Of a DNA stretch of 26,313 nucleotides, positions 1 through 18,594 are shown one piece after another. This stretch comes from a virus. Its lineage: Duplodnaviria; Heunggongvirae; Uroviricota; Caudoviricetes. A model generated the notes under the pieces. The model worked only from the letters and a program-made list of their open reading frames with translations. It did not search any database and was not told the origin of the DNA. The stretch lies in the IMG/VR virus record IMGVR_UViG_2687453108_000014; one strand, written 5' to 3'. Both the position numbers and the translations under genes were made by a program. Position 1 is the first letter of the stretch. Each line of letters begins with the position of its first letter.

Positions 1-118
1 ATGTCTGCACCTGCATTGCCTGATGTCAGAACAGTATTTTGATTAATTGCCAGGGTTACAATGGCACAAATGCGGCACAGGAGGAAACGTGGTGTATTTA
101 AATATGGGGTAACTACTT

Positions 119-146
119 GATTTAAATGGTGCGATAATAGGAACCA
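119..146. repeat. Degenerate copy of the thrW 3' end plus flank; possible distal att junction of the P4-like element
   Basis: ttgatttaaatggtgc-gataatagga matches 24859-24886 (flank plus start of thrW 3' end) with a 1-bp gap, then diverges. Confidence 0.35.
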
Positions 147-285
147 ATAATCGCCACCAACACAATGATTTTAATACATAAATTAAAATAGAAGATTTAA
201 ACTACACACACCCCTATACACATTGGTGAAGGCGTTCGCTTTCCGCGCATTCTCAAGGCAGAAAAAACTTTTTTTGGGGGATAAC

Positions 286-376
286 TGTTCATACTACTCA
301 TTGTGTTTTTTTTCATTAATATTCAAAAAGATATGAAATTAACGATTGATAAGAAGTGAACACTTTACTGTTCACC
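286..376. repeat. Iteron-like octamers (TGTTCAYY / GTGAACA), including an inverted pair; candidate P4-type crr/ori
   Basis: TGTTCATA at 286-293; GTGAACAC at 356-363 and TGTTCACC at 369-376 form an inverted pair with a 6-bp spacer. I recall TGTTCACC as the P4 alpha-binding iteron. Confidence 0.35.
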
Positions 377-675
377 TTGACTGATTAATAAGTGCATAAA
401 AACCTAATTTTTGAGCACGGAAGGTATTTGTTCCTTACCCCATTTTTTCTCTTTAGTCCAGTACAACAAAAAATGCGCCCAACAGAAAACTGTTTTGAAT
501 TTAAATGCAATCGCTTTGTAGTGATTGTAACGTAAGTTGATTTGATGGGTGCGATTTTGTTTAGCGATAATGGTATGTTGTAAAAATCATTTCGTTGCAA
601 TAAAATTGCATCGCTACATTTTATAGACAATATCAATTAAATTTTAATACTCATTATTAATTTTGAGGCTAACAA

Positions 676-1632
676 GTGACTAGTTATTCAAACTTTTCCA
701 ATCAAATAAAAGAAACCATCAATAATAAATTCGATCATGAAATTCATGATTGGGACATTATAAAAAACTCAATCACAACTTTAATAAATAAAAATATCCA
801 TGGTGCAGGTAGAAATATCGTTGATTTTATAGATTTAGGTAACTGGGATTTTATTTCAAACTTTTCCTTTGATGACTCTACAAGAAGACTTGAATTAGAG
901 TGGCACCCCAATGATAAATTCCATATATATATTGAGTCCGTTGTGTTTGTCGAGTTTAATGACACTATATATGCTTTCTTAAAGGGATACTATCACAATC
1001 AGTTATCTCTAAATAGAATATATAATACAAAATGCTCTTCATGTTCATTTGAAAACTCAGGTTCTTATATGGTAGACGTTTATAGAACGGTTAAAAGAGT
1101 AAATGAGACAATCCAGACCCCAAATATAAATTGCTATACTACATGTATTTTAACAAGGCCCGCAAATGGTCATGTTACATCTACAGGCTTCTCACGAAAC
1201 CTCATGGATGCGATAAATATTTCATTAGCAGAGCACAAAATAGCCTCTTTACATAATGAAGTCATGAGTATTGAGGAATATGATCGTGATTCTTTACAAG
1301 AGAAAGGAAATACTGCCAGGAGATATTTAGAATATATTCTCATGCTTGTTAATATTCGTATAATGCATTTAAACAACGTTCAATACCAAGAGCAAATGCT
1401 AGGTAGTTTAGTTTCTGTTATTGAGGCTCTGGACTATGAACCATTAATGAAAAATGATGTTGAAATTACAAAGGACATCCTTAATGCTTGCAGCCACCAC
1501 GGGGGGGTTAGAATTGAAAAGAAAGATGTAATTTTTTCTTTGGAAGTTATTGAAAACTTAATTAAAGCCATAAAGAAAACCGACATAAATAAATTACAAC
1601 TCGATGGGATGTTTAAATCAATTCAAAAATAA
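676..1632 (+). CDS. Hypothetical protein, 318 aa, AT-rich cargo gene of unknown function
   Basis: Long uninterrupted ORF with GTG start preceded by GAGG at suitable spacing; visibly AT-rich versus the neighbouring primase gene; no motif I can recognise. Confidence 0.6.
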   Translation: MTSYSNFSNQIKETINNKFDHEIHDWDIIKNSITTLINKNIHGAGRNIVDFIDLGNWDFISNFSFDDSTRRLELEWHPNDKFHIYIESVVFVEFNDTIYAFLKGYYHNQLSLNRIYNTKCSSCSFENSGSYMVDVYRTVKRVNETIQTPNINCYTTCILTRPANGHVTSTGFSRNLMDAINISLAEHKIASLHNEVMSIEEYDRDSLQEKGNTARRYLEYILMLVNIRIMHLNNVQYQEQMLGSLVSVIEALDYEPLMKNDVEITKDILNACSHHGGVRIEKKDVIFSLEVIENLIKAIKKTDINKLQLDGMFKSIQK

Positions 1633-1736
1633 ACATCATCTAACAATGAATTAGATGCATTTTCCGCTGACGCCTTAGCATATAACTTTTAAATTTTATC
1701 GATATATATTTTGAGATAATTTCCTGTAGCGGATTT

Positions 1737-1757
1737 AAGACCGGCACAGCCGGTCTT
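1737..1757. terminator. Hairpin between convergent genes, possible bidirectional terminator
   Basis: Perfect 9-bp stem aagaccggc / gccggtctt with 3-nt loop, between the stop of the 676-1632 ORF and the stop of the primase gene; no strong U-tract. Confidence 0.35.
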
Positions 1758-1764
1758 AGGTCAG

Positions 1765-4098
1765 TTATTTCGCTGCAAACTCATCGCATTTTGGCAACCA
1801 GTCAGCATTGCTTTCCTCTCTTAGGGCCAGATTAGTCTGCATTCCTTGATTGGTCCGTCGTTTCTCATACTGCAGCCCATATTCCTTGAGCATTAACGGT
1901 AGCCCCTTGCCAAACATGGTCAGACTGAGCGTATTTTTATAGCCGTTAGCCTCCATGTAGACCAGATAGGCATGGTAGAGGTAAGTTCGAGGCTGACGTG
2001 GAACAATATTAGCGTTCCCCATAAACATGCCCGTGGTGTCAGGTAGGACCTCAAGGTAGCCGCAAAAATCAAAAGCTGAATCAGCATCACGTTTGATGGT
2101 GAGCGCTTCATCGGAGTTCTGCTGTGACTGAAGCAATGTCCTGGCACTCATTGGGTCGCTGAAACGCTGCATAAGCTGGCGAACAATCACCGCTAGCTCA
2201 CTGGCAATTTTCTCTTTGAGCTGGGTATCGCGTTCCTCCGGGGCTATCTGGTCGGGGAAATGCAGGATCACCCTTCGGCGTGAAACTCCACCACTACGAT
2301 CAGTGAAGCGCATCGGATTATTGTTCACAGCCAGGATGACCGCCGGGATGTGGGTTGAATAGGCGTTCTGATATTTGGGATCAACGGATACCGCATCGCC
2401 GCCAGTGATGGCTTTTAGTCCGGCCCCGTCACCGCTCCACTTTTCCTGGTCGGGAAGTCGAATCAGTGAAAAACCTATTAACGCAGCTCGTTCTCTTGGC
2501 GACTCAAGCATTTCAATGGTTGCCGAGGTCGCGTTATCTTCACCCGCCAGCATGGTTGCTATTTCAGCAAGAATACTCTTTCCACTTCCGCCAGGGCCAG
2601 TGACCTCCAGAAACAGCTGCCAGTCATAACGGTTAGCCAGCACCATAAACAATGCAGCCAGAATAATGTCCCGTTTTTCAGGATTAAAACCTGCGGCACG
2701 ATCCAGCCAGCGCCAGAATGCCGGGGCATGGGTTTCCAGTGACTCACCGTCAACGGGCTGCGTGTAATCCACCTCGCACAGCGTACGTAACCAGTGCTTC
2801 TTATCGTGCGGGCTGAACAATCCTGTCCGGGTATCGAGCACACCGTTGCGAAATCCGATAAGTTGCCGCGCCGGATTCTGCTGTTGCGGAACGATCAGTT
2901 TGAGGGTTTCCACGAGAGACGCAATTTTCGCGGATGAAAAAGGTGCGTCGAGGCGCTGAAACAGCGCAGCGACATCACGGGCAAAATCGGCGTAATAGAT
3001 AACTTTCCAGGCCCCCGCCTCATAGCGTGAAAGGAGCTGCCCGTTCGGGTCTACTGCCAGTGAATTTTTATAGTGATCCACTACCCTCTGCGCTTTTTCG
3101 CTGACGCTCAGCGCGGTAAATTCAGCTTCGCTCATTGTGTCGAAGGGGCTGGCAACAGCTGGTTTTATTACTTCATGAATTGCATGCCGGGTGGCTTCTT
3201 CGCCGTTTTGCGTGAATGCATCGTTCCAGTCACCAAACACAGGCGGGAGCGCCATTGTGCAATTGCAGGCCCCGGTAACAGCTGCGCCCCTTGTTTGCCC
3301 CGCACCGTTGAGATCGCGGTCAGCAGCAATAATTATCTGGTGCGTTGGGTACTCACTGCAGGCAATGCTCGCCAGGGAAAGGAAATTGACGGACGAAAAG
3401 GCCACCATGACAGCATCGCCAGTCAGATAGTTGATAGTAAGTGCGGTGGCATATCCTTCCGCTATCCAGAGCCGTTTGGCTGCTTTGGCAGTACCTTCAA
3501 CCAGGTAAAAGGCATTCTTAACCTGACCGCCTTTAAGGAAGCATTTGCCCCCATTAGCGTTGATTAACTGCAGATTTACCAGCTCTCCATCTGCATACAA
3601 TGGAACGACAAGATCTCCCGCGCGAAATGCCACACCACCGACTTTATGCATAGCGGTTAATTCCCGGCAAGGCAGTGCAGGAAACCCTTTACTCGTCAGA
3701 TAGGCATTGCCAGTGGTCTGGCGGGACTTATCAAACAAACGGGCAGCCAGCACTGCTGCAGCTTTTCTCCCGTCCTCTTTTTCAGGAGAACCAGATTCAA
3801 GCATTCCCTGAGATACTGGCAGCAGGTTTCCGATAATGCCGTTTATTCTGTCTGCCGCTTCACTAATGCCTACATCCAGTACTTTACTTACAAGCGCCAG
3901 GCCATCACCTGCCCCGCACTGGTTACAGAACCACGTTCCCCGCCCTTCCTGGTCATCAAATCGAAAGCGGTCTTTCCCGGCACAGACCGGGCAGGGCTGG
4001 TGCCGATTTTTCAGTACATTTACGCCCAGCGCAGGTAAAATTCTTGACCAGTGACCCCGAGCTGCTTTCTCAGCCTGGCTAACTTTCATTCCTGACAT
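1765..4098 (-). CDS. P4 alpha-type primase-helicase
   Basis: N-terminal zinc motif CPVCAGKDRFRFDD...CNQCG, central TOPRIM-like region, C-terminal Walker A GPGGSGKS. Start placed at the internal Met (MSGMKVSQ...), which removes the overlap with the upstream ORF. Confidence 0.88.
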   Translation of the reverse strand: MSGMKVSQAEKAARGHWSRILPALGVNVLKNRHQPCPVCAGKDRFRFDDQEGRGTWFCNQCGAGDGLALVSKVLDVGISEAADRINGIIGNLLPVSQGMLESGSPEKEDGRKAAAVLAARLFDKSRQTTGNAYLTSKGFPALPCRELTAMHKVGGVAFRAGDLVVPLYADGELVNLQLINANGGKCFLKGGQVKNAFYLVEGTAKAAKRLWIAEGYATALTINYLTGDAVMVAFSSVNFLSLASIACSEYPTHQIIIAADRDLNGAGQTRGAAVTGACNCTMALPPVFGDWNDAFTQNGEEATRHAIHEVIKPAVASPFDTMSEAEFTALSVSEKAQRVVDHYKNSLAVDPNGQLLSRYEAGAWKVIYYADFARDVAALFQRLDAPFSSAKIASLVETLKLIVPQQQNPARQLIGFRNGVLDTRTGLFSPHDKKHWLRTLCEVDYTQPVDGESLETHAPAFWRWLDRAAGFNPEKRDIILAALFMVLANRYDWQLFLEVTGPGGSGKSILAEIATMLAGEDNATSATIEMLESPRERAALIGFSLIRLPDQEKWSGDGAGLKAITGGDAVSVDPKYQNAYSTHIPAVILAVNNNPMRFTDRSGGVSRRRVILHFPDQIAPEERDTQLKEKIASELAVIVRQLMQRFSDPMSARTLLQSQQNSDEALTIKRDADSAFDFCGYLEVLPDTTGMFMGNANIVPRQPRTYLYHAYLVYMEANGYKNTLSLTMFGKGLPLMLKEYGLQYEKRRTNQGMQTNLALREESNADWLPKCDEFAAK

Positions 4099-4111
4099 TG
4101 TGCGGCCCTCC

Positions 4112-4435
4112 TTAGTGCAGCGCTGGTTTGTTGAGGTGACGGGAACAAAGTTCATCCATGACCGTCATTCCGAGCAGTGAGAGAACCGGACAGGCTTTAA
4201 GCGGCCCCGACTCCATCAGATCCGAAAGCAACGCGCAGGCAATTTCCAGCCCTCTTTGCTGCCCATGCTGGCGCAGATAGAACCCTTCCAGCTCGCGGGC
4301 TATGGCATCTTCAAGTTCAGCGAGCGTCAGGCCGGAATAACGTTCCTGATGATTGCTTAGAGCCAGCCAGGCACAGGCAACGGCACGGCGATACAGAGCG
4401 GCACGAAGTGCCAGAAGAGATTCACAGCATATCAT
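4112..4435 (-). CDS. Hypothetical protein in the P4-like early region
   Basis: ORF co-directional with and just upstream of the primase gene; no recognisable motif. Confidence 0.45.
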
Positions 4436-4656
4436 CAGGCCACCTCCGCATTCATCAGGTCGTCATGGCAGCGTTGCACCACTCCATCCAGTTGCTCTGT
4501 CATCAGATAAATGAGGGAAACCAGTTGTTCGCATTGGGCACCTGCTGGCTTTTCATAACAGTCCTGCAGGGCTGCCATGCCAGTTACATACTCACCCACA
4601 TTGCGTAAATGTTTCAGCCTTACAACATCGTCGTAGGAAATCTCAAACTGGTTCAT
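4435..4656 (-). CDS. Hypothetical small protein in the P4-like early region
   Basis: 73-aa ORF abutting the neighbouring ORFs in an operon-like arrangement. Confidence 0.4.
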
Positions 4657-5210
4657 AGCGTCACCTCCCCGGCAGGCAGCCGTGCAGAAAGGGAGAGTAC
4701 ATAATCTCGGACTAGCAAACGGCGCGCGGAACGCTCATCGCAGGAGACAGTGCGAAGCATACAGATGCGGGGGTGAGTGTCAGCACGGCGGATTGCGGCA
4801 AACACAAAGACATATTGCGGGTGTGACGGGGTGAGGATTGTAGCCATGATGGCAGCCTCCAATAAGTAGCGGTTATTGCTACCACCGGAAACGCCAATTT
4901 CACTGGTGGCAGCCCGAACGGGGTTGGCGTAACCGGCCTTATTGGAAACCGGCCAGCCCGAAGGCTGCCCCGCCCGGACTACCATTATCTCGATAGAACC
5001 ATGGTGTAAGCATAAACACCACAGCCCTGAAAATGGTTGTGCCTGAGCTACGACGTAAAAAAAGACGCAAGGGGCGTCAATTGTCGCCAATAAGTTATAC
5101 GGAACGCCAATTCCGGCTGCCGATTTTGCGACAGCGGAAAAACTATACCTGGAAATGACGACAGTAAGCAAGCCAGAATAAAGGTATTTAATGTATGCAG
5201 GTATCATCAT
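4653..5210 (-). CDS. Hypothetical protein; start overlaps the alpA stop (ATGA); true start uncertain
   Basis: ATG at 5208-5210 overlaps the AlpA stop; composition is not strongly protein-like, so a shorter internal start is possible. Confidence 0.3.
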
Positions 5211-5467
5211 GCATCACATCCCCGCCCACGGGCGCTGATGCGGTCCGCCATCCATGCGCTGACCTCAGACTGTGCCCAGGCGACATTTTTACCGCCAAGC
5301 GGGATCTGCTTCGGAAACGCATCGCGGCTGATCAGGTCGTAAACGGTCGAACGGGACAACCCGCATAAGTGCATCACCTCAGGCAGGCGTAAAAATCGCT
5401 CATGATGGTTCGATACAGGAAATAATGGCGCAGCAGGAGCTGGCGCAGACACAGAAATATTACGCAT
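5207..5467 (-). CDS. alpA: AlpA/Vis-family prophage transcriptional regulator
   Basis: Segment [53 protein letters not shown] is characteristic of AlpA-family HTH proteins of P4-like elements. Confidence 0.8.
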
Positions 5468-6020
5468 TTATCTACCCTCTTTAATTTCCACAACAGTCCG
5501 GATGAATTTATCCGGGTTCAGGTAGTTCCTTATTATGTGTATATAAACCACCTGCGCACGCATTTTTTATTTAGCGTCACATATTGATTTTATGGAATTT
5601 AAAGCCCGATTAAACCATATAAAATGACATAATAAATACCATGCCTGCGGACTATAAATACAGGAGCATTAATAGGAACTACCATTCACCCAGGGTTTAC
5701 TATCCTATGGGTCATTGCACCTGATAGTGCTAACCCCACCGCCAATACAGCAAGGCAGTACAACTTCTACACGAGGCCTTGCATTGCAGGCCCCAATTTC
5801 CGGGCATATTTTTGAATCGCATCCAACTTATAAACATTGGGCCTGCATAAAAACCTTGATATTAAATAACATCACCTTAAATCGTAAAATATATCCGAAT
5901 GAATCCATAAAGAACCGGACAGATCTAGTTTTATAAAAATCAGTATGAAATGCAACACCATGGCCAGAGGCGAAAATGTTATTCCCCGGCAAAAACATGC
6001 AGTCTATTTATGTGCCTGTT

Positions 6021-6233
6021 GAATACTCCTGAATAAGGGTGAATAGTGGTGAGGAGCAAAAAACAAATAGCTACGAGGAATAAAAAAACCACCCATTATG
6101 AAAAAATACCATAAATAATTTTATTCCCATGTGAACAGTTATGAACAGTCGATGAATACTGCCATGCCAACCCTTCACCTTATAACCTTCTGTATTACCT
6201 ATTTTTTTTACCTAAGTGAATAGTAGTGAATAG
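6021..6233. repeat. Cluster of iteron-like octamers (GGTGAATA / GTGAACAG / AGTGAATA) in the divergent control region
   Basis: At least six copies of TGAAYA-type octamers at 6038-6045, 6130-6137, 6141-6147, 6151-6158, 6215-6222 and 6225-6232; they resemble the reverse complement of the P4 iteron. Confidence 0.4.
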
Positions 6234-6400
6234 TTAAGGTAAGTCTGAAACAGCCTTAGTTAAACGAGGCCTTTTCTGGCTAGCCAAAAGAGGTCCGGGG
6301 CGGTTCAGTCTTTGTCTTGTCGCTCGCACAATGGCGTTCAATGGCAGCTTTGTATGCATCACAGCACAATTGACACCACGACAAACCACTAGGTGCTGAC

Positions 6401-7153
6401 ATGACAATCCCAGAACAGAACAATAACCCGATCGTTGAAATTTCTATCCCTGTTTCGACGCAACAGGCGCTTGAGAAAGTGAATGCCACCAAATCTGCAT
6501 GGCTTGAAGCACGTCGTCAGCAAAAAGCGGCAGCGGATAATATTGCGACAATCCGCCAGCGCCGCGCTGAAATGGAAGCCACGACGAACGCCCTGAATGA
6601 GGAGTGGCGCACGCTATTTCGTGAAAGTCAGGGCGTAGTCTCAAAGGAAATGAAAAAACTGCGCACGGAAATTGCGCTGGGACGAGAAACGCTTGAGGAT
6701 TTTGATGAGCTGCTGGCGGCTCAGGAAAGCGAAAATGCACTTTTGCCGCAGGAGGCTGCGGAATTAGCCGGAAAGTATATCCACGCGCACGACACCCTTG
6801 TGGGTATTCGCGCAAAACAAATCTGGGAAGATTTTATGCAGTCGCATGGAAAAGCACTAATCCAGACACTAAGCCTGCTCAAATCAACAATGGGCAGGGA
6901 AGCCAGCGCAGTTGTCGGTGTGGTGCATTCAGTTAATGACCCGGACACACTGCTGAAAGATTTTATTCATAAACATATCACCAGACCGGCTCTGACTAAC
7001 GATGCGATGCCCGAACAGGACCCCGTGTTTAAACTGGCGGGAGTTGCCCCGGATTATGCGGCCCGTCTGGATTTCAGTAATAAACTCTCTCCAGCAGCTA
7101 TGCATAAAATGAAGGTTCGTCAGGAACGTGCTGAGAAGGAGAAAGCAGTATGA
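6401..7153 (+). CDS. sid: Sid-like capsid size-determination protein
   Basis: 250-aa coiled-coil-rich protein first in the sid-psu-delta block; shares the FMQ-HG-AL motif with the adjacent Psu-like gene. Assignment is from position and recalled similarity. Confidence 0.55.
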   Translation: MTIPEQNNNPIVEISIPVSTQQALEKVNATKSAWLEARRQQKAAADNIATIRQRRAEMEATTNALNEEWRTLFRESQGVVSKEMKKLRTEIALGRETLEDFDELLAAQESENALLPQEAAELAGKYIHAHDTLVGIRAKQIWEDFMQSHGKALIQTLSLLKSTMGREASAVVGVVHSVNDPDTLLKDFIHKHITRPALTNDAMPEQDPVFKLAGVAPDYAARLDFSNKLSPAAMHKMKVRQERAEKEKAV

Positions 7154-7701
7154 TGGCCCGAGTCACTCCAGACCAAGCGCTTATCAGTTTTAGAAATGCC
7201 CGTATTCTGTGGGCTGGACATAGTGAGAGCCGAAAAGCCGTTGAACAACAGATAGAATCACTCCTCACTGCCATGGAAAAACCAGCAGATTATGCTCGAC
7301 AGCTCGAATTACAGCGGGAACATCTGGATGTGCTGAAATGGCAAATTAACTGTGCTGCGCGCGAATGCATTTACTCGCAGCATCAACTGATGGAGGCCTG
7401 CACAGAAGACGCTCTCAGCAATTTTATGCAGGCGAATGGAGCAGCCCTGACATCTGCACTGGCTCCGTTCCTGAAGGGGCGCGGAGGGGTTGACGTTGCG
7501 TCCCGTATATTACGCAATGCTCTGGTTCGCCAGCTGGCAATAACACCGCCTGAAATTGCCGGGGATTATCGTATGATTCTGGATGAATCCGGTGTGATGC
7601 CTGACCCCATGATGGTTCGTGATTGCCAGAGCTCTTACACCCCTGCACAACAACTGCGCTTTCAGCAACGTCTGGATTACATTAACGGCATGCAGGAGTA
7701 A
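7150..7701 (+). CDS. psu: Psu-like polarity suppression protein
   Basis: 183 aa; KWQINCAARECIY and FMQANGAALTSALAPFL resemble what I recall of P4 Psu; start overlaps the sid stop (ATGA). Confidence 0.65.
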   Translation: MMARVTPDQALISFRNARILWAGHSESRKAVEQQIESLLTAMEKPADYARQLELQREHLDVLKWQINCAARECIYSQHQLMEACTEDALSNFMQANGAALTSALAPFLKGRGGVDVASRILRNALVRQLAITPPEIAGDYRMILDESGVMPDPMMVRDCQSSYTPAQQLRFQQRLDYINGMQE

Positions 7702-7706
7702 TATTA

Positions 7707-7979
7707 ATGGCACTTAAATGTCCCGAATGCGGTACGACGGCACACGCCAGAACCTCCGCCTATGAAGCACCATCGGTTAAACGCTCATGGTATCAGTGCC
7801 AGAATCTTGAATGTTCCTACACATTTACCGCACTGGAAAGTGTGGATACGATAATCATGAAGCCCCGGCGCAATGAACAGGAATCAGAGAAAGCACAAAT
7901 GCCGGAAAAACAACAGCAAACTCTCAATCGCTATGGCTCCGCGTCAAAGCTGTCAAGCCGTCAGCAAATTCCTGTCTGA
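7707..7979 (+). CDS. ogr: Ogr/Delta-family zinc-finger late transcription activator
   Basis: CPECG...AHARTS...YQCQNLECSYTF matches the Ogr/Delta zinc-finger pattern of P2/P4-type elements. Confidence 0.85.
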   Translation: MALKCPECGTTAHARTSAYEAPSVKRSWYQCQNLECSYTFTALESVDTIIMKPRRNEQESEKAQMPEKQQQTLNRYGSASKLSSRQQIPV

Positions 7980-7998
7980 TTAGCAAAAAAAGCCCACG

Positions 7999-8027
7999 TA
8001 ATCCCGGTCCAGTACTGGGATTTTTTA
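7999..8027 (+). terminator. Rho-independent terminator after ogr/delta
   Basis: Stem AATCCCGG / CTGGGATT around a 7-nt loop, followed by TTTTTT. Confidence 0.6.
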
Positions 8028-8388
8028 CGCCTTTTCCCTGGCTGGCCTGAGAGCGCATGAGTGCATGTCTATAGCGCATGAAAACGCATGATTCTCATGC
8101 ACCATTTTTGACGCGAAAGCCCTTGTGTGGTGGCTTCTGAGACGATTTGCGGAATGCATGAAAACCAGTCTGTTAAGCGAAGCGAGCAGGCGTGGGGGGC
8201 TGCGCGCGCTAAGGGGTTAGATTATAAAATATCAAACGCCGGTGAGATCCATTATTGTGGAACCACCCGAAGGAAGTGTAGAGGCGAAAGTACCCAAAAT
8301 AATTTTGCAAATTATTTAGAAATGAACTGAGCGCTCGAAACGAAATATAATTTCGAGCACCCCAATTAGCAGTTATATTTTTAATGTA

Positions 8389-10207
8389 TTAAACAGGATA
8401 AAAACCAGAGCTTCCATTCTTATTTAAGTTATGGATTTTATTTGCATCATTAATTTTTATTTGGAACGTCGGACCTTTATTCTCAAGAATTACAATCTGG
8501 AAATTATAGTCCCTTTTGATTAATGCGTGATAAAATGAATCACTGAGACTGACGCTATTAACATCCGATAGAGAACCCCCTCTATCTTTATCAAAGTGCG
8601 TCACTAATGGACTATCAAGCACAACAAATCCAATGAATGGATTCCCTTTTCTTGATAAAAATTCCGCAAAGCAAATGGTAAATATAGCATGCATTACTGC
8701 ACGGGTACCTTTACCAAACATTCCTCGGCGTTTCCCATTGATATTAAAGTCATATGTATCTTCGTCAAATCGCACTTTGTTATCTTTAGAATTTTCAAAA
8801 TTTATATCATTCAAAAAGTCTTGCATCGCTATTTCTATATCATACAAATCAGCTACTGTTAAGGAGTCAAAGTCCTCGGCGGAGTATTTAAGTTCGTCAA
8901 CATCATCTTCTTTATCTTGTAATGAAGATAGAATGCTATGTTTTGTGTGATCCATTAAAAGATTGTCTTTATATTCATAAAGTGATTCAAGAGATGAATG
9001 TATTGTTTTATATTTTTATCTTCTAACGTCTTAAAATCACTTTTTTCTGATTGATAAATTTCATTAACATCATTTTTTCTTAACATAATTAATTCATGTT
9101 CGCGAACATTAGATCCGATTGATTCAATTAATCCTTTCAGCTGGCTTTTGATTTTCAATTTTTCTGCATTACACGACAAAAAACAATCATCATATGATAT
9201 TTCATTTTCTTTTTTTGCGGTGTATTACAGAACTCACAATAAATATCTGCAAAATTATTTAAATAGAAATTCGCCTGTGATACAACATCTATTCTTTGTA
9301 GATCTATAAAGTATTGGTCTTTAAGAAGACTAAATCTTTCAATGAGTAATGATAAGTATTTTTCCCTGTCACTGATTGAATATAATTCATCACTTAACTC
9401 TTTTAATAATTGCTTCTTATCATCAAGTGCATCAACAATACCTTTCAATATATCTTTCGATGATTCAATATCTTGCTCTACTTTCTCAAGTTCTCTTGAA
9501 ACAATGACTTGATCATATTCAGGATAAATTAATTGCGCTTTCAATTCCTCATAAATATTTGCAATTTGATTTTTTTAAAAATATCTTGCTTTTTTATTTG
9601 GTTTTTCTGCTAAGGAGTTAGTATCATCTCTCTGAGTTAAAAGGAATTTAAATTCAGACTTTCTTTTTGTCTCCTCGCTAGGAATATCAGAAAGAATTAA
9701 CGACTTCTCAGTTAACACTCTTAATTCATCAATACAAAAAAATTCAAAAACATTATTAAGATTAAATTTATGAAGAGTATTACTTAAGTTTGTTCTTACT
9801 TTAGCCTCTTTGAAATTCAACCTACCATAAAAGTATGATGAAAAACTCTTTTTAGACGAAGCACTTTTGGAAAAAACCATCAACAGATTAGCTTCACTAA
9901 CATTTTCAATACTCGAATCATATAATCTGTAATGGGCGCTATCCTGAAGAGACCTCTCAATTGTCATTACCCTACCTTGAAAATTAAATTCCAGATAGGC
10001 TAAATCATAACCTTGAGCATGATCGATATCTTTATTTTTTAGTTTTTCACTCCCTAATAAATATCGAATCAAATAATATATGTATGTTTTTCCAGAGTCA
10101 GAACCACCATATAAAATAGTCAATTTAGAACCAAATTCAATTATAGCATCTAATTTATTGAATCCGGTTACCTTTATTTTTCTGAACGTAAAAAAATTGT
10201 CATTCAT
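8389..10207 (-). pseudogene. SMC/ABC-like ATPase (component 3), split into four ORF fragments by one in-frame TAA and at least one frameshift
   Basis: N-terminal fragment has an SMC-type Walker A (FRKIKVTGFNKLDAIIEFGSKLTILYGGSDSGKT); the middle is coiled-coil-like; the last fragment has a Walker-B-like FVVLDSP. Fragments 9578-10207 and 9155-9574 are in the same frame separated by TAA at 9575-9577. Fragments 2 and 3 use TTG starts. Confidence 0.5.
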
Positions 10208-10658
10208 AATTAAATTCCATATCATATTTGCCAATTTTATTTTTTATAATTGATTGCAACTGCTCATCAGGAATATCACTATATAACTTAACCACCAAAT
10301 TTATATTATGCTCCATCTGCGCAACATATTCATTATGTAGAGAATTTGTAAATGCATATGTTTTTTCAGAAGCTTTATATACAAAACCACGATGTGTATA
10401 AATTTTTGAGGCTAGTTCATAGCCTTGCAACAAAGCCAATGATTCTAAAACAATCTCTCGTTTTAGGGCTAACTGAGCATCTCTACGGGGTATTGGAGGA
10501 TGAAGACTAATCTCTTCAGGTAAAAAATCCTTAAGATTTACTAAAATAAAATCAAAACAAATAAGCCGTTCAAGGCTTAATGAAGAAGGATAAATAGCGA
10601 CGAGCACTTTCGCCATTCGACATGCCACTTCTAAACTTGAATTATAAATTCTAACCAT
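10200..10658 (-). CDS. Small protein (component 2), about 152 aa from the internal ATG
   Basis: ATG at 10656-10658 overlaps the upstream stop (TAATG) and its own stop overlaps the ATPase start (ATGAATGA); no recognisable motif. Confidence 0.5.
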   Translation of the reverse strand: MVRIYNSSLEVACRMAKVLVAIYPSSLSLERLICFDFILVNLKDFLPEEISLHPPIPRRDAQLALKREIVLESLALLQGYELASKIYTHRGFVYKASEKTYAFTNSLHNEYVAQMEHNINLVVKLYSDIPDEQLQSIIKNKIGKYDMEFNYE

Positions 10659-11275
10659 TATCTCACCGTCCAAATTACTTCACCATCATTAACCAAATGA
10701 TGGCATATTCCTTTTTTATCATTTGCTTCACATATTTTTGATAGTACTGAATGTGCAATTGGTGTCAGAACAGCCTGCTTCAAGACTGCATTACACCTAA
10801 TAAATGCATAATTATGGTCTTCATAAAAGACGGGTTCAATTGAAGATGAAATGTAACATTTCAATGCTTTGAATACATCATCTTTAAATACTTCGCGGAC
10901 AAAAACCTCAAGCGAAGATGCAAAATAAAAATCATTTCTACTATTATTAAAGTGTCGTCTGTATGGATCATCAAGCTCTAAGAAAGAACTATAAGTTTTA
11001 TTTCCATGCTCTGAATAGGCTTGAAGCAGTGCATTAACATATACAGACTCTTTTTTTGAATTGTATGTTGGAATTTCATTTGGAGGGATTCTCACGACAT
11101 ACAGCTCGTTAAAGTACTTAAAATAAAGGTGTGTATTTGCAATATCATTTAAAATCAATGATAAGGGTAGAGAGTAAAAAATACTAAAATCAAAATCCTC
11201 AATATATTTTTTTATTTCATCATCTAATGGAATATCAATCTTTTTAGTTATTTTTTTGAAATTGCTGAATCCCAT
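10658..11275 (-). CDS. Hypothetical protein, probably the C-terminal part of the upstream nuclease-like gene
   Basis: Overlaps the upstream ORF by 28 nt in another frame exactly at an A7 run (11251-11257); its own RBS is weak; a 1-nt change in the run would fuse the two into about 340 aa. Confidence 0.45.
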   Translation of the reverse strand: MGFSNFKKITKKIDIPLDDEIKKYIEDFDFSIFYSLPLSLILNDIANTHLYFKYFNELYVVRIPPNEIPTYNSKKESVYVNALLQAYSEHGNKTYSSFLELDDPYRRHFNNSRNDFYFASSLEVFVREVFKDDVFKALKCYISSSIEPVFYEDHNYAFIRCNAVLKQAVLTPIAHSVLSKICEANDKKGICHHLVNDGEVIWTVR

Positions 11276-11664
11276 GAATCAAGGACTGCTTTTTTAAGCT
11301 CGTTTTTATTTTTCAATAAATTAGAAAATGTAGTAGATAAATCATAGGGTGCCACAAAAAAGTACTTCTGAGGGATGGGATAATCACCATTCAGAGTAAA
11401 ATAGATAAGTTTTCCAAACTCAACTACAACATCAGAGAACCCTAAACTTTTTTTGTACAGTTTGCATTGATAATTATCCCAAGAATAACCTTCTACGTTA
11501 GGATCCGATTTATATCCAACAACGTCTCTACCTTTATCTCCAGCTCCTCCCAAACGTTCGCTCCACGGGTAATCATCTGATTTACAGACAATAAGCCAAT
11601 CATGGACAAATACCTCCCATTGTTCATCATCCCATGTCAATATTTCCGAAAGTGGTTGAGACAC
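11248..11664 (-). CDS. PD-(D/E)xK (Mrr/Cap4-like) nuclease-domain protein (component 1, N-terminal part)
   Basis: ERLGGAGDKGRDVVGY ... NYQCKLYKK resembles the G-x-GD-x-G-x-D ... QxK catalytic core of Mrr-type nucleases; GTG start 7 nt after AAGGAG, directly downstream of the integrase stop. Confidence 0.5.
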   Translation of the reverse strand: MSQPLSEILTWDDEQWEVFVHDWLIVCKSDDYPWSERLGGAGDKGRDVVGYKSDPNVEGYSWDNYQCKLYKKSLGFSDVVVEFGKLIYFTLNGDYPIPQKYFFVAPYDLSTTFSNLLKNKNELKKAVLDSWDSAISKK

Positions 11665-11667
11665 AAA

Positions 11668-12849
11668 TTAACTCCTTTTTAGTCTTTCAAATATCAAATT
11701 ACTGTACCAGTCCATCATAGACTTCCTTCCACTAAAATATTGAGCATGGTTATAAGTCCCCCTAATAGAATTTTTATCTACATGAGCCAACTGGATTTCA
11801 ATCCAAGCACTCTCAAAACCTTGCTCATGCAGGATTGTAGAAAGGGTATGACGAAAACCATGTCCAGTGACTTTTCCTCCATACCCAATACGCTTAATGG
11901 CTTGATTTATACTCGCTTCGCTCATTGGCCTATTCGGATCGTTCCGCCCTGGAAAAACATAACGATAGTTCCCTGTCATGATCTTGAGTTCATTGAGTAA
12001 ATCTACCGCTTGAGATGATAAGGGCACAAGATGTGGCCTACGCATTTTCATCCTTTCAGCAGGAATTTCCCAAATAGCGTTATCCAGATCAAATTCTTGC
12101 CATAATGCCGCGCGTAATTCGATGGTTCTCACACCCGTAATCATCAGTAATTTCGTGGCTATCTGGACAAGCTTACTCCCGGAGTAACCCTCTAAGGCAC
12201 GTAGAAAATCAGGTATCTCATCAGCTTTTAGGAATGGGAAATGATTGGATTGGTGTACTTCGAGAGCGCTGGAGAGATCAGCCGCAGGATTGTACTCCGC
12301 CCTACCCGTTGCAATTGCGGGGCGGTTCACTTCGGAGCAACGCTGCCGCACTTTGCGCATTTTCTCCAACGCACCACGTTTCTCAATTTTACGCAGAACG
12401 TTCAGCAGCTCTAGCGGTTTAATCTCTCCCACAGGCCTTGTTCCGACATAAGGAAAAATGTCGTTCTTAAACGCTTCCATGATGTCTGATGCATATCCCG
12501 CCGACCATTTAGCAGATTTAAGTTGATGCCACTCTCTGGCTATCTTTTCGAAGGCGTTCTCTGACTCTGTTTGCATAGCTAGCTTTTGCTCTTTTCGAAC
12601 CTCACTAGGGTTCTTTCCTTCTGCCACAAGTTTTCGAGCTTCATCACGACGGGAACGAGCATCGGCAAGGGTGATCGTTGGGTAAACACCAAGCGAGATC
12701 ATTTTGGGTTTGCCGGCATAGCGATAGCGGAACCGCCAACTCTTGCTTCCATTAGGTTCTATAAGTAATGACAACCCTAGCCCATCTCCAAATGTATAGG
12801 CTTTAGCTTCAGGCTTAGCGCGGCGAATCTGCATATCGTTTAAAGGCAT
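11668..12849 (-). CDS. int: P4-type tyrosine integrase
   Basis: P4-type N-terminal arm-binding region (MPLNDMQIRRAKPEAKAYTFGDGLGLSL...) and catalytic HxxR (GHGFRHTL) and Tyr (RGTYNHAQY) motifs; lies next to the partial thrW repeat. Confidence 0.9.
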   Translation of the reverse strand: MPLNDMQIRRAKPEAKAYTFGDGLGLSLLIEPNGSKSWRFRYRYAGKPKMISLGVYPTITLADARSRRDEARKLVAEGKNPSEVRKEQKLAMQTESENAFEKIAREWHQLKSAKWSAGYASDIMEAFKNDIFPYVGTRPVGEIKPLELLNVLRKIEKRGALEKMRKVRQRCSEVNRPAIATGRAEYNPAADLSSALEVHQSNHFPFLKADEIPDFLRALEGYSGSKLVQIATKLLMITGVRTIELRAALWQEFDLDNAIWEIPAERMKMRRPHLVPLSSQAVDLLNELKIMTGNYRYVFPGRNDPNRPMSEASINQAIKRIGYGGKVTGHGFRHTLSTILHEQGFESAWIEIQLAHVDKNSIRGTYNHAQYFSGRKSMMDWYSNLIFERLKRS

Positions 12850-12904
12850 GTGTATAGGAATCCAGACCGAACAGGAACATATACACAATCCTATACACAT
12901 TCAG

Positions 12905-13010
12905 TACCGGATTCTACTGGATGGTTACGGACTACTATGGACTTAAAAGAATAAAAAATGTTATAAATCAGAGATTTTATGGACTAATACGGACGTTTGA
13001 GGAAGTTGAG
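12905..13010. promoter_or_regulatory. Candidate integrase arm-type binding repeats
   Basis: Repeated TACGGAC / TATGGACTA motifs between the int start and the att core. Confidence 0.3.
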
Positions 13011-13012
13011 AT

Positions 13013-13058
13013 GGTGCCGATAATAGGAGTCGAACCTACGACCTTCGCATTACGAATT
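13013..13058 (-). repeat. 46-bp partial thrW 3' end, the att junction between the two elements
   Basis: Exact 46-bp identity to 24870-24915 (3' portion of thrW); diverges at 13059. Confidence 0.85.
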
Positions 13059-13338
13059 ATAAGAATCCGCTTCTAATTCAAAGCATTACCCCATCAACAC
13101 TGCGCTCACACGTCCCACCACATCAAAACATGTAAAGCCTTGCAAGCCATTGCGAGGCCTTATGTGTCTCAGTTTTGTCCCACCTTGTATTACGACTTGC
13201 ATAGCCAATGAAGATAAACGTGACGACAAACGGCGCAGCAGTCTTCTTTTCTTTCACGACTTCTCCAGCATGCATACCTTTCTGCCATGACTGAAGTGAA
13301 TGCCTGTTATGAGCAAGGATTGGCCCAGATGAATCGCC

Positions 13339-13504
13339 CTGGACTGTTGCGATCGTGAAGCCATAGACTGGGCCGCAAGCACGGGAGGTTACGATAAAGC
13401 GACAGTGCAGGATGTCATGTTAGGAGCGATAGAAAAACGCTTTGGCGATAAAGTACCGGAACAGTCCATCCAGTGGCTGACAGATAACGGTTCAGCGTAT
13501 AGAG
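13339..13504 (+). pseudogene. IS2-family (IS3 superfamily) transposase remnant, upstream part, interrupted by the IS629-like element
   Basis: Translates to ...[51 protein letters not shown], resembling an InsD-type C-terminal region; the frame continues after the IS. Confidence 0.55.
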
Positions 13505-13558
13505 TGAACCGCCCCGGAAATCCTGGAGACTAAACTCCCTGAGAAAGAGGTAAACAGG

Positions 13559-13885
13559 ATGACTAAAAATACTCGTTTTTCCCCCGAAGTCCGTCAGCGG
13601 GCGATTCGTATGGTTCTGGAAAGTCAGGATGAATATGACTCACAGTGGGCGGCAATTTGTTCCATTGCCCCAAAGATTGGCTGTACGCCGGAGACTCTGC
13701 GTGTCTGGGTTCGCCAGCATGAGCGGGATACCGGGGGCGGTGATGGTGGGCTCACCAGCGCTGAACGTCAGCGTCTGAAAGAGCTGGAACGTGAAAATCG
13801 TGAACTGCGCCGCAGTAACGATATCCTTCGCCAGGCTTCCGCTTATTTTGCGAAGGCGGAGTTCGACCGCCTCTGGAAAAAATGA
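13559..13885 (+). CDS. IS629-like OrfA (HTH)
   Basis: [23 protein letters not shown]... with leucine-zipper-like C-terminus, typical of IS3-family OrfA. Confidence 0.85.
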
Positions 13886-14772
13886 TGCCACTGCTGGATA
13901 AGCTGCGTGAGCAGTACGGGGTCGGACCGGTATGCAGCGAACTGCATATTGCCCCGTCAACGTATTACCATTGTCAGCAACAGCGACATCATCCGGATAA
14001 ACGCAGTGCCCGTGCGCAGCACGACGACTGGCTGAAGAGAGAGATACAGCGCGTATACGATGAAAATCATCAGGTGTACGGTGTGCGTAAAGTCTGGCGT
14101 CAGTTGTTACGGGAAGGAATCAGGGTGGCCAGATGTACAGTGGCACGTCTCATGGCGGTTATGGGACTTGCCGGTGTTCTCCGGGGTAAAAAGGTCCGTA
14201 CGACCATCAGCCGGAAAGCCGTTGCCGCAGGCGACCGCGTAAACCGTCAGTTCGTGGCAGAACGACCTGACCAGCTGTGGGTGGCTGATTTTACTTACGT
14301 CAGCACATGGCAGGGCTTCGTCTATGTGGCGTTTATCATTGATGTGTTTGCCGGATACATCGTGGGGTGGCGGGTCTCATCGTCTATGGAAACGACATTC
14401 GTGCTGGATGCGCTGGAGCAGGCGTTGTGGGCCCGTCGTCCGTCTGGCACCATCCATCACAGCGATAAAGGCTCTCAGTATGTGTCACTGGCCTATACGG
14501 AGCGACTAAAAGAAGCCGGATTACTGGCATCAACAGGGAGTACAGGCGACTCGTATGACAACGCGATGGCTGAGAGCATCAATGGTCTTTACAAAGCGGA
14601 GGTAATACACCGTAAGAGCTGGAAAAACCGTGCAGAAGTGGAACTGGCCACACTAACGTGGGTGGACTGGTATAACAATCGACGATTGCTGGGAAGGCTG
14701 GGCCATACTCCTCCGGCAGAAGCAGAAAAAGCTTATTATGCTTCCATCGGAAACGATGATCTGGCAGCCTGA
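13882..14772 (+). CDS. IS629-like OrfB (DDE transposase)
   Basis: DDE-type catalytic region (...WVADFTYV..., ...HHSDKGSQY..., ...DNAMAES...); overlaps orfA as expected for programmed -1 frameshifting. Confidence 0.85.
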
Positions 14773-14817
14773 GTTCACAGATAAAACACTCTCCAGGAAA
14801 CCCGGGGCGGTTCAGAG

Positions 14818-15083
14818 CGCATGAAACACGGCAGTTCGCCAGAGAGTTGAATCTGGAGCCCTGCACAACGGCAATCAGCAGTCCTCAGAGTAATGGAATT
14901 GCAGAAAGGTTCGTGAAAACGATGAAGGAAGACTACATCGCGTTCATGCCGAAACCGAATGTAAGAACGGCATTGCATAATCTTGCAGTGGCGATCGAAC
15001 ATTACAATGAAAACCATCCGCACAGTGCGTTGGGTTATCGCTCTCCGCGAGAATATCGACGTCAGCGGGTAACGTTAACTTAA
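14818..15083 (+). pseudogene. IS2-family transposase remnant, downstream part (C-terminus)
   Basis: ...[36 protein letters not shown]...[14 protein letters not shown]... continues the frame of 13339-13504 once the IS and one GAG copy are removed. Confidence 0.55.
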
Positions 15084-15124
15084 GATACCCCCCCTGTCTG
15101 GAAATAAGGGGGCAAGAACAATGA

Positions 15125-15868
15125 TCAGATTCCCTGGTGAGTAAGAATTTTACTTTCTGAACTCCTCTGAGAGTATTGACTTGGAGAAACACCAAAATAA
15201 CGTCTAAATACATAAGTAAAGTATGAGACACTGGCATAACCACAGACCTTAGCTACTTTACTAATAGGATAACAACGAGTGCTGAGTAAATATTCAGCCA
15301 TTTGCATCCTCTCATCAAGTATGATCTTACTGAATGATACCCCCTCTTCTTTCAATTTCCTCTTTAGTAAACTTTCGCTGAGATATAATCTTGATGATAT
15401 ATCCTTAAGACGCCATGGTGCAGATAAATCCGTATGAATAATCGTTTTAACTTTAGCCCCTGTGCTTTTCAAACATCCAAACAGAAATACTCCAAATTGT
15501 TTTTCAGAAGAAAATGCAGAGAGACATGTAAAAGCAATAGACTCATCAAAAATTTCTATGTATTCAGCACAGTGATTAGCCCAACTAATTAATCCTTTAA
15601 TTAAACTGAAGTCAGCAAAGTTTATTTTTAAATAAGATGGATATTCCCTACAATCAGAAATATCCCTTAAGTTATTAGCTTTCAAATAGCGACTAATAAA
15701 CTCAGCGCCAAAATCCGCCACTATCACTCTTTCAGGATATGTCAGGAAAAAATCTCTAGAGCTAGAGTCGACAAGTACAGATGAACCTCTCTCCAGAAAC
15801 ACACTCTCTTTTCCGAAATAAACATCAAAGGACTCCAAAATCAATATAACTGAACATGTAGTTGCCAT
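15125..15868 (-). CDS. AraC/XylS-family transcriptional regulator, AppY-like
   Basis: C-terminal double HTH (WRLKDISSRLYLSESLLKRKLKEEGVSFSKIILDERMQMAEYLL...VCGYASVSYFTYVFRRYFGVSPSQY); overall layout resembles prophage-borne AppY-type regulators; gene is AT-rich. Confidence 0.8.
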   Translation of the reverse strand: MATTCSVILILESFDVYFGKESVFLERGSSVLVDSSSRDFFLTYPERVIVADFGAEFISRYLKANNLRDISDCREYPSYLKINFADFSLIKGLISWANHCAEYIEIFDESIAFTCLSAFSSEKQFGVFLFGCLKSTGAKVKTIIHTDLSAPWRLKDISSRLYLSESLLKRKLKEEGVSFSKIILDERMQMAEYLLSTRCYPISKVAKVCGYASVSYFTYVFRRYFGVSPSQYSQRSSESKILTHQGI

Positions 15869-16450
15869 ATCATCCCCCCAATTTAACTGAAACCAGGATG
15901 AAGTATATGTATATAAAGTTCACTTTGCCAAACTTCAGTATAAAAAACCACTAAAAATAGGGTGTGATAAAAAATACCGTAACAATAAAGCAAAGGATTA
16001 TAAATTCCGTTACAGTTACAAATGATACTCAAGAAACAATTCCTTAGGAAAAACTTATTTACAGCCAATAAGTAAGACACTTATATGATATCAAGTTTTC
16101 ATAAAACATAACTAGGCTAAATAGCTGCGCCTAATACCGCTACACTTTTGCCAGCCCATGTTTGCCTCCGGGTATTGACCCCTTCTCTACGCAACTTCAG
16201 TTCCCACCACCAACTTTGCGGCAGCTTTGTAGGATCAATGTCTAAAAGAATAATGGTGACCGATAAGAAAACGACTGAATAACTGCAGATTTTCGCTCAA
16301 AACCTTCCTGTCAGATCCATAGCGAATCAAGTGCTGAATGTCACAGTATCGAACAGAAAACAGTGACGATCTAACCCTTCAAGAATATTCTACGATTGTT
16401 CTGTTTAGGAAAAGCAAGACGGGAAGTCGGGAGATAAGTCATTGATAAAG

Positions 16451-16512
16451 TGGCGGAGAGAGGGGGATTTGAACCCCCGGTAGAGTTGCCCCTACTCCGG
16501 TTTTCGAGACCG
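16451..16512 (-). other. 62-bp 3' fragment of a tRNA-Ser(CGA) gene (serU-like), att-type remnant
   Basis: Reverse complement reads CGGTCTCGAAAACCGGAGTAGGGGCAACTCTACCGGGGGTTCAAATCCCCCTCTCTCCGCCA: anticodon arm with CGA, long variable arm, T-arm and acceptor 3' end; the 5' half is absent. Confidence 0.7.
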
Positions 16513-16595
16513 ACCCGATCATCAAACGAAACATAAAATTAGCTCACATTATGAGGAAAGGTATCTTTTTGCGCTATGTAAATTCAAAGGGTTAG

Positions 16596-17465
<870 letters not shown>

Positions 17466-17522
17466 ATCTTCAAGTGGTAAGCATAAACCGCAGCACGATC
17501 TTGCATACGACGTGCTACGGTT

Positions 17523-18077
17523 TCATTTATCTCCGGCCGGAAACTTCTTATACAGTGTCGATACACCAACATCATAGATGATCGCTACCTTCTGGCGAGG
17601 AATTCCTGCTGCAATTAATCGTCCGGCCTGCGCCCATTGTTCTGGTGTAAGTTTGGGACGACGTCCACCAATTCGTCCCTGTGCGCGAGCAGCTTCCAGT
17701 CCAGCTTTTGTTCGTTCAACAATCAGTTCTCGTTCCATTTCAGCCAGGGCCCCCATCACATGAAAGAAAAAGCGCCCCATTGGGGTACTGGTATCAATAG
17801 CATCCGTCAGGCTGCGAAAATTAACGCCACGTTCGCGCAACTCCTCAACCAGAATGACCAGATGCCGCATACTGCGCCCCAGCCGATCCAGTTTCCAGAC
17901 AACCAGAGTGTCACCTGCCGATAATGTCCTGAGCAGTTTTTTCAGTCCCGGCCTTTCGGACTTTGTACCGCTTATCTTGTCTTCAAAAATCAGCTCGCAT
18001 CCTGCACAGTTCAGCGCATTACGTTGTAGATCTGTGTTCTGGTCATTTGTTGACACACGTACATAGCCAATAAGCAT
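17523..18077 (-). CDS. pin: Pin/Gin/Hin-family serine DNA invertase
   Basis: MLIGYVRVSTNDQNTDLQ... with catalytic Ser and C-terminal HTH; lies next to a hix/gix-like site and an invertible segment. Confidence 0.9.
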   Translation of the reverse strand: MLIGYVRVSTNDQNTDLQRNALNCAGCELIFEDKISGTKSERPGLKKLLRTLSAGDTLVVWKLDRLGRSMRHLVILVEELRERGVNFRSLTDAIDTSTPMGRFFFHVMGALAEMERELIVERTKAGLEAARAQGRIGGRRPKLTPEQWAQAGRLIAAGIPRQKVAIIYDVGVSTLYKKFPAGDK

Positions 18078-18141
18078 GGTAGATCTCCCTGACAAAAGCA
18101 GGAATGATGCCATTTGCTCGTTATTTCTGCATTTTCATAAA

Positions 18142-18167
18142 CGTTGGTTTGGGAGAAGGTGCTCCAG
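18142..18167. repeat. Invertase crossover site 1 (hix/gix-like, 26 bp)
   Basis: Reverse complement TTCTCCCAAACCAACGTTTATGAAAA resembles hix/gix sites and matches 19971-19996 in inverted orientation over TTCTCCCAAACCAA-GTTT. Confidence 0.7.
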
Positions 18168-18388
18168 CTATTGGCGTTCCGTTTCTGGCCGTCCGCTGCA
18201 ATGCCAATACTGTAATCGACAGCTGGTCCTGTATGGTGTTTTTGAAGTTCAACGGCGCGAAATTCTCTGCCACTGATTATCCTGTGCTGGCGAAAGTGTT
18301 TCCTTCGCTGGTATTACCTGAAGCCGCGGTGATTTCATTCGTATCTGGGATGACGGGCGAGGTGCAGACGGTGGTCGCGAATTATTAA
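18168..18388 (+). other. Promoterless alternative tail-fibre C-terminal segment (Sv')
   Basis: Frame runs on from the crossover site: ...GAPAIGVPFLAVRCNANTV...KFNGAKFSATDYPVLAKVFPSLVLPEA..., a tail-fibre-like motif. Confidence 0.45.
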
Positions 18389-18594
18389 GCTGGCAGGCAG
18401 CTACAACTTTCTCAGTTTGCCGGGAATATAGGCGAAGGTGCGGGACACGCAATTAACTTTCATGATGGCATCGCCGGAAATCAGCCAGGATTTTCACGAT
18501 TTAATTTCACCAGTAACTCTGTGGGTGATGGTGTGAATTTTGTTGCAGTCAGACCGCGAAATATTGCATTTAACTTTCTGGTGAGGGCTAAATA

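Follow-up and report, generated by a model that had tools for sequence, protein, structure and literature searches.

Sp2, a P4-like satellite prophage of Escherichia coli O157:H7, carries a 318-codon gene, ECs_0304, between its alpha primase gene and its att site, and the locus raises the question of what such a gene does in a satellite. An initial annotation had taken it for an orphan cargo gene and had remarked that single-gene anti-phage or abortive-infection proteins often look like this. We studied the gene within a stretch of 26,313 nucleotides (IMG/VR record IMGVR_UViG_2687453108_000014; hereafter, the window), the whole of which matches the thrW-proA region of O157:H7 strain JEONG-1266 at 100% identity. 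Besides thrW itself, the window contains two copies of the thrW 3' end, and hence two tandem elements (Table 1). The left element is named "prophage Sp2, P4-like phage" in the annotation of strain Sakai, which places its end at window position 143; the right element, Sp1, is a decayed lambdoid remnant. The main cargo hotspot of Sp2 holds a Lamassu system in pieces. Since the Lamassu genes are broken, the main defence system of Sp2 is decayed, whereas ECs_0304 is intact. Literature searches for WP_000205213, ECs0304 and NP_308331 returned no papers.

Table 1. Positions of the features discussed, in order along the window.
Feature	Position	Strand	Remark
att copy (thrW 3' end plus flank)	109-146		Primase-side end of Sp2
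Sp2, P4-like satellite prophage	~143-13057		
Inverted pair of P4 type-I-like iterons, AGTGAACA ... TGTTCACC	355-376		crr-like remnant directly left of the insertion
Cargo insertion module	379-1736		Relative to the empty-slot element of E. coli TOE3 (L019)
GAGG Shine-Dalgarno	665-668	+	7 nt before GTG; read from sequence
CDS ECs_0304 / NP_308331.1 / WP_000205213.1	676-1632	+	318 aa, GTG start; annotated "hypothetical protein"
N-terminal beta-rich domain, residues 1-165	676-1170	+	Three helices; AlphaFold2 model
C-terminal HEPN-fold domain, residues 170-318	1183-1629	+	Helical in AlphaFold2 model
Helix-2 motif R215-x3-E219-x3-K223	1318-1344	+	Codons AGG 1318-1320, GAA 1330-1332
Motif N270-A-C-S273-H274-H275-G-G277, end of helix 3	1483-1506	+	Place of the canonical HEPN Rx4-6H
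Hairpin terminator common to ECs_0304 and alpha primase	1726-1768		P4 backbone
Alpha primase-helicase	1765-4155	-	P4 backbone gene bounding the slot; annotated start gives 1765-4098
C4 antisense RNA (P4 immunity RNA)	4902-4989	-	Rfam, 84 bits
isrK	5058-5135	-	Rfam, 72 bits
sid/psu/delta	6401-7979		In Sp2
Main cargo hotspot (psu-int) of Sp2	8389-11664	-	
LmuB, three broken ORFs	9578-10207, 9158-9544, 8392-8955	-	
LmuC, intact	10203-10658	-	
LmuA, split in two ORFs	11251-11664, 10661-11275	-	Profile 10-140 and 141-333, respectively
Sp2 integrase	11668-12900		
thrW 3'-end copy	13006-13057		
Sp1, decayed lambdoid remnant	13057-24870		
tRNA-Thr(CGT) (thrW)	24870-24945		

The open reading frame, its GTG start and its GAGG Shine-Dalgarno sequence are all present as first described, and the start codon is supported by relatives that begin at the same aligned residue. 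The GC content is 0.28-0.33 along the gene (31.3% for the gene as a whole), as compared with 0.52-0.55 in the alpha primase gene, which bears out the earlier observation that ECs_0304 is more AT-rich than the P4-like core. Comparison with homologues of 71-80% identity gave dN/dS values of 0.06-0.13, with synonymous sites near saturation, as expected of a working protein-coding gene. We conclude that ECs_0304 is a real gene under purifying selection. The O157 allele was found in 307 of 5426 complete E. coli genomes, and 306 of the 308 matching E. coli records, mostly O157:H7 with O55:H7, are at least 99% identical.

We compared the region with related elements. Window positions 1-378 correspond to positions 5601-5980 of the element of E. 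coli TOE3 (L019), and 1737-2400 to L019 6001-6664. These flanks are only 20 nt apart in TOE3; hence, the O157 element has a 1.36-kb insertion that reaches from the iterons to the primase terminator. The whole att-to-alpha interval is empty in strain MIN14, and is swapped for a different 1.6-kb segment in strain 22AR0322. ECs_0304 therefore lies inside an att-bounded element, in an interval that is empty or holds a SIR2-like gene or ECs_0304 depending on the relative. In a second E. coli lineage (L006), the same gene occupies the same slot. The L006 protein is 77% identical, the 75% nucleotide homology extends across the hairpin and into alpha, and the junction on the left, which follows the iterons, TGTTCAC(C/T)TT(G)ACTGATTA, is common to L006 and the window. 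Thus, the association of gene and slot is old rather than a one-off event. The gene in the 22AR0322 slot (L018 4789-5886) encodes a 365-aa protein, WP_114569535.1, that is annotated as hypothetical and gives matches to PADLOC SIR2 models (E 3.5e-9) and none to Pfam.

To survey the slot more widely, we examined 80 P4-like loci from other species, and defined a slot gene as an ORF of at least 150 aa starting no more than 800 nt after the primase gene. Such a gene was present in 64 of the 80 loci, and these first genes after alpha fell into 52 unrelated clusters. Among the clusters are AAA_15/AAA_21 proteins that match AriA, PtuA and GajA, together with Mrr_cat, HNH, AbiEii, SIR2, GmrSD, reverse transcriptase (RVT) and TIR; integrases of neighbouring elements and host genes are represented too. 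Across these 64 loci, the slot between alpha primase and att is hypervariable and rich in defence domains. A search of all 80 loci with the family profile detected no relative of ECs_0304, and we therefore reject a conserved P4 core function. Hence, the proposal that ECs_0304 is cargo is well supported, both by the discrete insertion that TOE3 lacks and by the different genes that fill the same position elsewhere. In a survey published in 2026, the interval between primase and att is classed as a minor defence hotspot of P4, in which 7% of P4 defence systems lie (PMC13586616). Like the cargo of P4 satellite hotspots (Rousset et al. 2022; PMC13586616), ECs_0304 is a single accessory gene in a variable slot, although it lies in the minor primase-att hotspot rather than in the main psu-int hotspot. 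Its product matches no system named or validated in those two studies, none of the six novel systems validated in PMC13586616 resembles it, and it matches no system in PADLOC 2.0.

ECs_0304 is convergent with the alpha primase gene, with a hairpin between them, as had been noted. This hairpin has a predicted folding energy of -26.1 kcal/mol (z -5.7; none of 200 shuffled sequences folds as well), and its stem is kept in L019 and L006, although the loops differ. In the empty-slot L019 element (~5990-6020), a T7 tract follows the primase terminator hairpin when read in the primase sense. In the window, the insertion lies directly against the hairpin, with TTAAATCC in place of T7; hence, the insertion may have weakened termination of the primase transcript, or may have made the hairpin serve both genes. 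The initial annotation also placed an iteron cluster beside the gene. A search for P4 type-I iterons over the whole window gave counts at chance level, with one notable inverted pair, that directly left of the insertion. However, L019 and L006 keep this pair and have 3-4 copies of the GGTGAA(C/T)A type at the same place, so the description holds in essence. A third, weak att-like copy, TTGATTTGATGGGTGCGAT, lies at 537-555, within the cargo module and upstream of ECs_0304, and is identical to positions 117-135 at 16 of 19 positions. It is absent from L006, and could be a chance occurrence in AT-rich DNA or a scar of module acquisition.

We then asked what kind of protein the gene encodes. AlphaFold2, supplied with the family alignment, gave a confident model (pLDDT 87.6, pTM 0.83) with two domains. 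The N-terminal domain is beta-rich and YojF/ChuX-like, with neither P-loop nor ABC motifs, and has a conserved motif, (I/V)VDF(I/L)DxxNWD. The C-terminal domain is made up of helix 1 (residues 170-198), helix 2 (204-229), an insert helix (242-251), helix 3 (261-273) and helix 4 (282-301). We assessed conservation in an alignment of 48 diverse relatives sharing 16-44% identity with the query. R215, E219, H274 and G277 are invariant in these relatives, and D50, D58, P162, N181, L222, K223, G243, L245, N270 and S273 are nearly invariant. D50 and D58 belong to the N-domain motif, and we considered whether this acidic motif might be a PD-(D/E)xK or metal site; we rejected this reading, since K103 is not conserved family-wide and the fold is not nuclease-like.

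In HEPN domains, the signature lies at the end of helix 3, an acidic residue is conserved on helix 2, typically as Ex3[KR], and inserts between helices 2 and 3 are frequent (Anantharaman et al. 2013, PMC3710099). In the ECs_0304 family, the Ex3[KR] pattern is present on helix 2, with E219 invariant and K223 nearly so. The canonical Rx4-6H is absent because N270 replaces the arginine (N-x3-H), whereas H274 is kept. An invariant arginine, R215, lies one helical turn before E219. Some HEPN families, such as c2405 and Parep1/8, likewise keep the histidine without the arginine, and other conserved basic residues could replace the motif arginine in such families (PMC3710099). We conclude that the C-terminal domain of the ECs_0304 protein is a divergent HEPN domain, so that a motif can be assigned to a protein for which the initial annotation could assign none. 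Mapping of the helices onto the HEPN fold would place R215 and E219 near H274. R215 and E219, both on helix 2, and H274, where helix 3 ends, are the putative catalytic residues, and the domain is probably an RNase.

Standard searches did not find this family. Pfam, NCBIfam and PADLOC searches with the query gave nothing above noise, and no family among the 5027 models of PADLOC-DB 2.0 matched at E values up to 10. PHROGs gave two weak matches only (E 0.0039 and 0.048), profile searches against PDB sequences gave nothing meaningful, and a profile search with the HEPN domain alone recovered only fragments of the same family. A remote link to the anticodon nucleases PrrC and RloC nevertheless emerged below threshold, although a Foldseek search of the predicted structure against the PDB found nothing significant. 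One family member (P0051) matches only the last ~140 positions (575-706 of 713) of the Pfam family AAA_13 (PF13166), with an E value of 7.8e-4 and 18.7 bits, where the cut-off is 36, and another (P0059) matches positions 634-692 (E 0.073). An AAA_13 protein is also encoded on a Salmonella contig (L108) that carries a family member. Close relatives of its C-terminus carry PF13166, and one of them is named "wobble nucleotide-excising tRNase", that is, RloC. The C-terminus of this RloC-type protein reads ...NTMRNILEYYFSF...INRHSHSDGRN..., with the stretch NTMRNILEYY before INRHSHSDG; aligned with the family consensus, NTxRRxxExxLK...LNxxSHDSG, it shares the motifs NT.R..LE and N..SH(D/S)(S/D)G. 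An hhalign comparison of the family with the RloC-type protein placed both motifs in register (P 5e-4 to 7e-4) with a probability of only 26-31%, because the template profile is thin.

The active site of PrrC provides a further point of comparison. Mutagenesis and chemical rescue implicate the triad R320-E324-H356 in PrrC (PMC1484252), and R215-E219-H274 of the ECs_0304 protein form an R-x3-E ... H constellation that would correspond to it. The spacing from arginine to histidine is 59 residues, as compared with 36 in PrrC, owing to a longer insert between helices 2 and 3. PrrC and RloC, like ECs_0304, are encoded by mobile accessory genes associated with phage defence. However, the ECs_0304 protein has neither their ABC-ATPase nor a zinc hook; it has a 165-residue beta-rich domain instead, and at 318 aa is shorter than PrrC (~400) and RloC (~800). 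PrrC is linked to type I restriction-modification, whereas the window has no hsd genes, and a type I restriction system is near the family gene in only one homologue context. Hence, lacking the defining ABC-ATPase, the ECs_0304 protein is not a member of the PrrC/RloC family. These sequence comparisons make homology of its HEPN domain to the PrrC/RloC nuclease domain suggestive, not proven.

Two other groups of HEPN proteins resemble the ECs_0304 protein in layout. In the c2405 and Parep1/8 type, an alpha+beta N-domain of ~170-180 residues likewise precedes the HEPN domain (with AbiTii in c2405). The likeness to c2405 is one of motif pattern only, with the histidine kept and the arginine lost, and the ECs_0304 protein differs from this type in having a compensating invariant arginine on helix 2. 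Two family members have weak matches to DUF4145, which belongs to the same clade as c2405, but at the sequence level Pfam AbiTii matched neither the query (E up to 10) nor the 48 relatives (E up to 1). The second group, RnlA and LsoA (RNase LS), are anti-T4 abortive-infection toxins of E. coli that likewise combine N-terminal alpha/beta domains with a C-terminal HEPN RNase, and an R/E pair on an earlier helix contributes to their active site, as is predicted for the ECs_0304 protein. RnlA differs in having three domains, a canonical Rx4H and an antitoxin gene, rnlB, whereas ECs_0304 has no partner gene. Foldseek comparison of the ECs_0304 model with RnlA/LsoA was not significant (E 0.24, TM 0.20).

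Contrary to its description as an orphan, ECs_0304 has many homologues, none of them annotated. A sequence search identified 36 clusters at 90% identity from Escherichia, Citrobacter, Providencia, Pantoea, Pectobacterium, Proteus, Enterobacter, Serratia, Salmonella, Klebsiella, Buttiauxella and Aeromonas. A profile search identified 108 representatives at 50% identity, none with a Pfam domain or an informative name. Homologues are found in two kinds of ICE, in a Providencia P4-like element directly after the delta gene, and in a lambdoid prophage past the replication genes. In another E. coli thrW island (L009 6715-14327), a 45%-identical homologue (P0032; 115 member sequences) adjoins the integrase gene, and in Salmonella the plasmid-like contig L108 carries a family member among defence and toxin genes. 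Further homologues lie in small chromosomal islets, several without recognisable defence neighbours. No partner or neighbouring ORF is conserved across the 10 homologue contexts that we examined; thus, the single gene is the unit of transfer and of function, and the family travels as a single gene among mobile elements.

Several features of these contexts are recorded here as side observations. P0032 is followed by a convergent operon of three genes, encoding proteins of 387 aa, 149 aa (response-regulator-like) and 1091 aa (with Pfam Y4jQ). The neighbours on L108 include a group II intron reverse transcriptase, a 448-aa RelA_SpoT protein, ParDE, TacAT, Rep3 and the RloC-type AAA_13 gene. The family genes examined (L003, L006, L009, L012 and L020-L024) have a GC content of 28-35% regardless of host, and that of Serratia is 35% GC with flanks of 62%. 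This family-wide low GC content suggests either a common low-GC origin or selection for AT-richness.

Taken with the fold and the PrrC-like triad, which add weight to it, the suggestion of an anti-phage or abortive-infection function is plausible. Our preferred explanation, which we consider somewhat more probable than otherwise, is that ECs_0304 is inserted satellite cargo encoding a HEPN RNase of the PrrC/RloC type, controlled by its N-domain, that brings about abortive infection. The 1.36-kb module with ECs_0304 would have been inserted into the minor defence hotspot between alpha primase and att. The N-domain stands where PrrC and RloC have their regulatory ABC-ATPase, and might keep the nuclease silent and sense a phage cue. 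The released HEPN domain, which like other HEPN RNases probably acts as a dimer, would cut tRNA or another RNA; translation would stop, infection would be aborted, and the clone and its satellite would be protected. All of this function, from RNA cleavage and its target to sensing by the N-domain and protection against phages, is what we infer. ECs_0304 is of a known kind, in that HEPN-based defence toxins and P4 hotspot cargo are both familiar, while the family is unannotated and its combination of domains and its active-site layout, which is non-canonical, are new. We put forward only tentatively the further reading that the protein is a minimal "ATPase-less anticodon nuclease" with a beta-rich sensor domain, one of a previously unrecognised family of single-gene abortive-infection proteins that shuttles among elements. 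Its carriers would be the Sp2 genomes dominated by O157:H7 and O55:H7, and satellites, ICEs, prophages and plasmids of Enterobacterales and Aeromonas.

We weighed three other explanations, each of which is less well supported than an abortive-infection RNase. The protein might be a toxin for addiction or for competition between elements, stabilising the satellite or acting against helper P2, rival satellites or incoming plasmids; its N-domain would then be an antitoxin within the same molecule. We regard this as unlikely. A toxin-type HEPN fold, a gene that is always on or beside mobile elements, the lack of a separate antitoxin gene, and ParDE and TacAT modules no more than 7 kb away on one plasmid-like contig would all fit. 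However, an addiction system in the classical sense depends on a labile antitoxin, and no ORF is conserved as a partner; moreover, lone homologues persist in chromosomal islets that have no mobile backbone to stabilise, and recognised anti-phage genes populate the slot.

Less likely again is a non-catalytic HEPN domain, in which case the protein would be a regulator that binds RNA or nucleotides, or an anti-defence factor, for example one that protects an element entering a new host. The invariance of R215, E219 and H274 in very divergent relatives, and their coincidence with the PrrC triad, argue for catalysis, even though the canonical Rx4-6H is incomplete and some HEPN families without it (MtlR and NTase-fused domains, for example) are non-catalytic (PMC3710099); R215 is a basic residue of the kind that could stand in for the missing arginine. 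As for anti-defence, the family gene of a Citrobacter ICE is flanked by an orphan N6/N4 methyltransferase and ArdC, surroundings that would fit an anti-defence gene as well. However, tblastn searches of phage and plasmid collections gave one marginal phage match and one plasmid match. The family is thus almost absent from sequenced phages and plasmids, the usual home of anti-defence genes, and nothing points to a phage-borne anti-defence role. Least probable is a silent passenger, a horizontally acquired and probably H-NS-silenced gene with no present role in O157:H7: its GC content is very low (31%), promoter-like sites upstream of it are no commoner than in shuffled sequence, and Sp2 tolerates gene decay, as its main hotspot with the decayed Lamassu system indicates, but 306 of 308 records have an intact ORF, in contrast to the broken Lamassu genes, purifying selection is strong across the family, and the L006 lineage has kept the same gene in the same slot at 75% nucleotide identity.

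If the abortive-infection RNase reading is true, a compact defence family of ~320 aa has been missed by current defence-finding tools, and control of an anticodon-nuclease-type HEPN domain is not confined to the ABC-ATPase but can come from a different sensor module. The protein would then be a simple system for the study of how HEPN toxins are restrained and triggered. Since the gene is intact in nearly all matching E. coli records, it could be relevant to the typing of O157:H7 by phages, to phage biocontrol and to the ecology of Stx phages in this pathogen. The gene further offers a concrete, testable case from the second defence hotspot of P4 satellites, between primase and att, which has received little study; candidate single-gene defence proteins are common in such hotspots.

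Some distant relatives are longer, at 470-610 aa, with an extra 170-290 residues. P0049, P0088, P0126 and P0138 have C-terminal extensions, whereas P0068, P0074, P0075, P0079, P0085 and P0141 have N-terminal ones. A Pfam scan of these ten proteins identified no informative fused domain, and the extensions may represent other sensor or effector modules joined to a common core. Elsewhere in the window, an ORF at 4653-5210, named "host cell division inhibitor Icd-like protein" in RefSeq, contains both the C4 antisense RNA and isrK. The Sp1 remnant is a mosaic of IS1203 with an ALIL pseudoknot, an AraC-type regulator, a LEM-3-like GIY-YIG protein (16641-17465), the pinE invertase gene with broken tail-fibre genes, a lambdoid replication/cII/cro/cI block and a truncated integrase gene.
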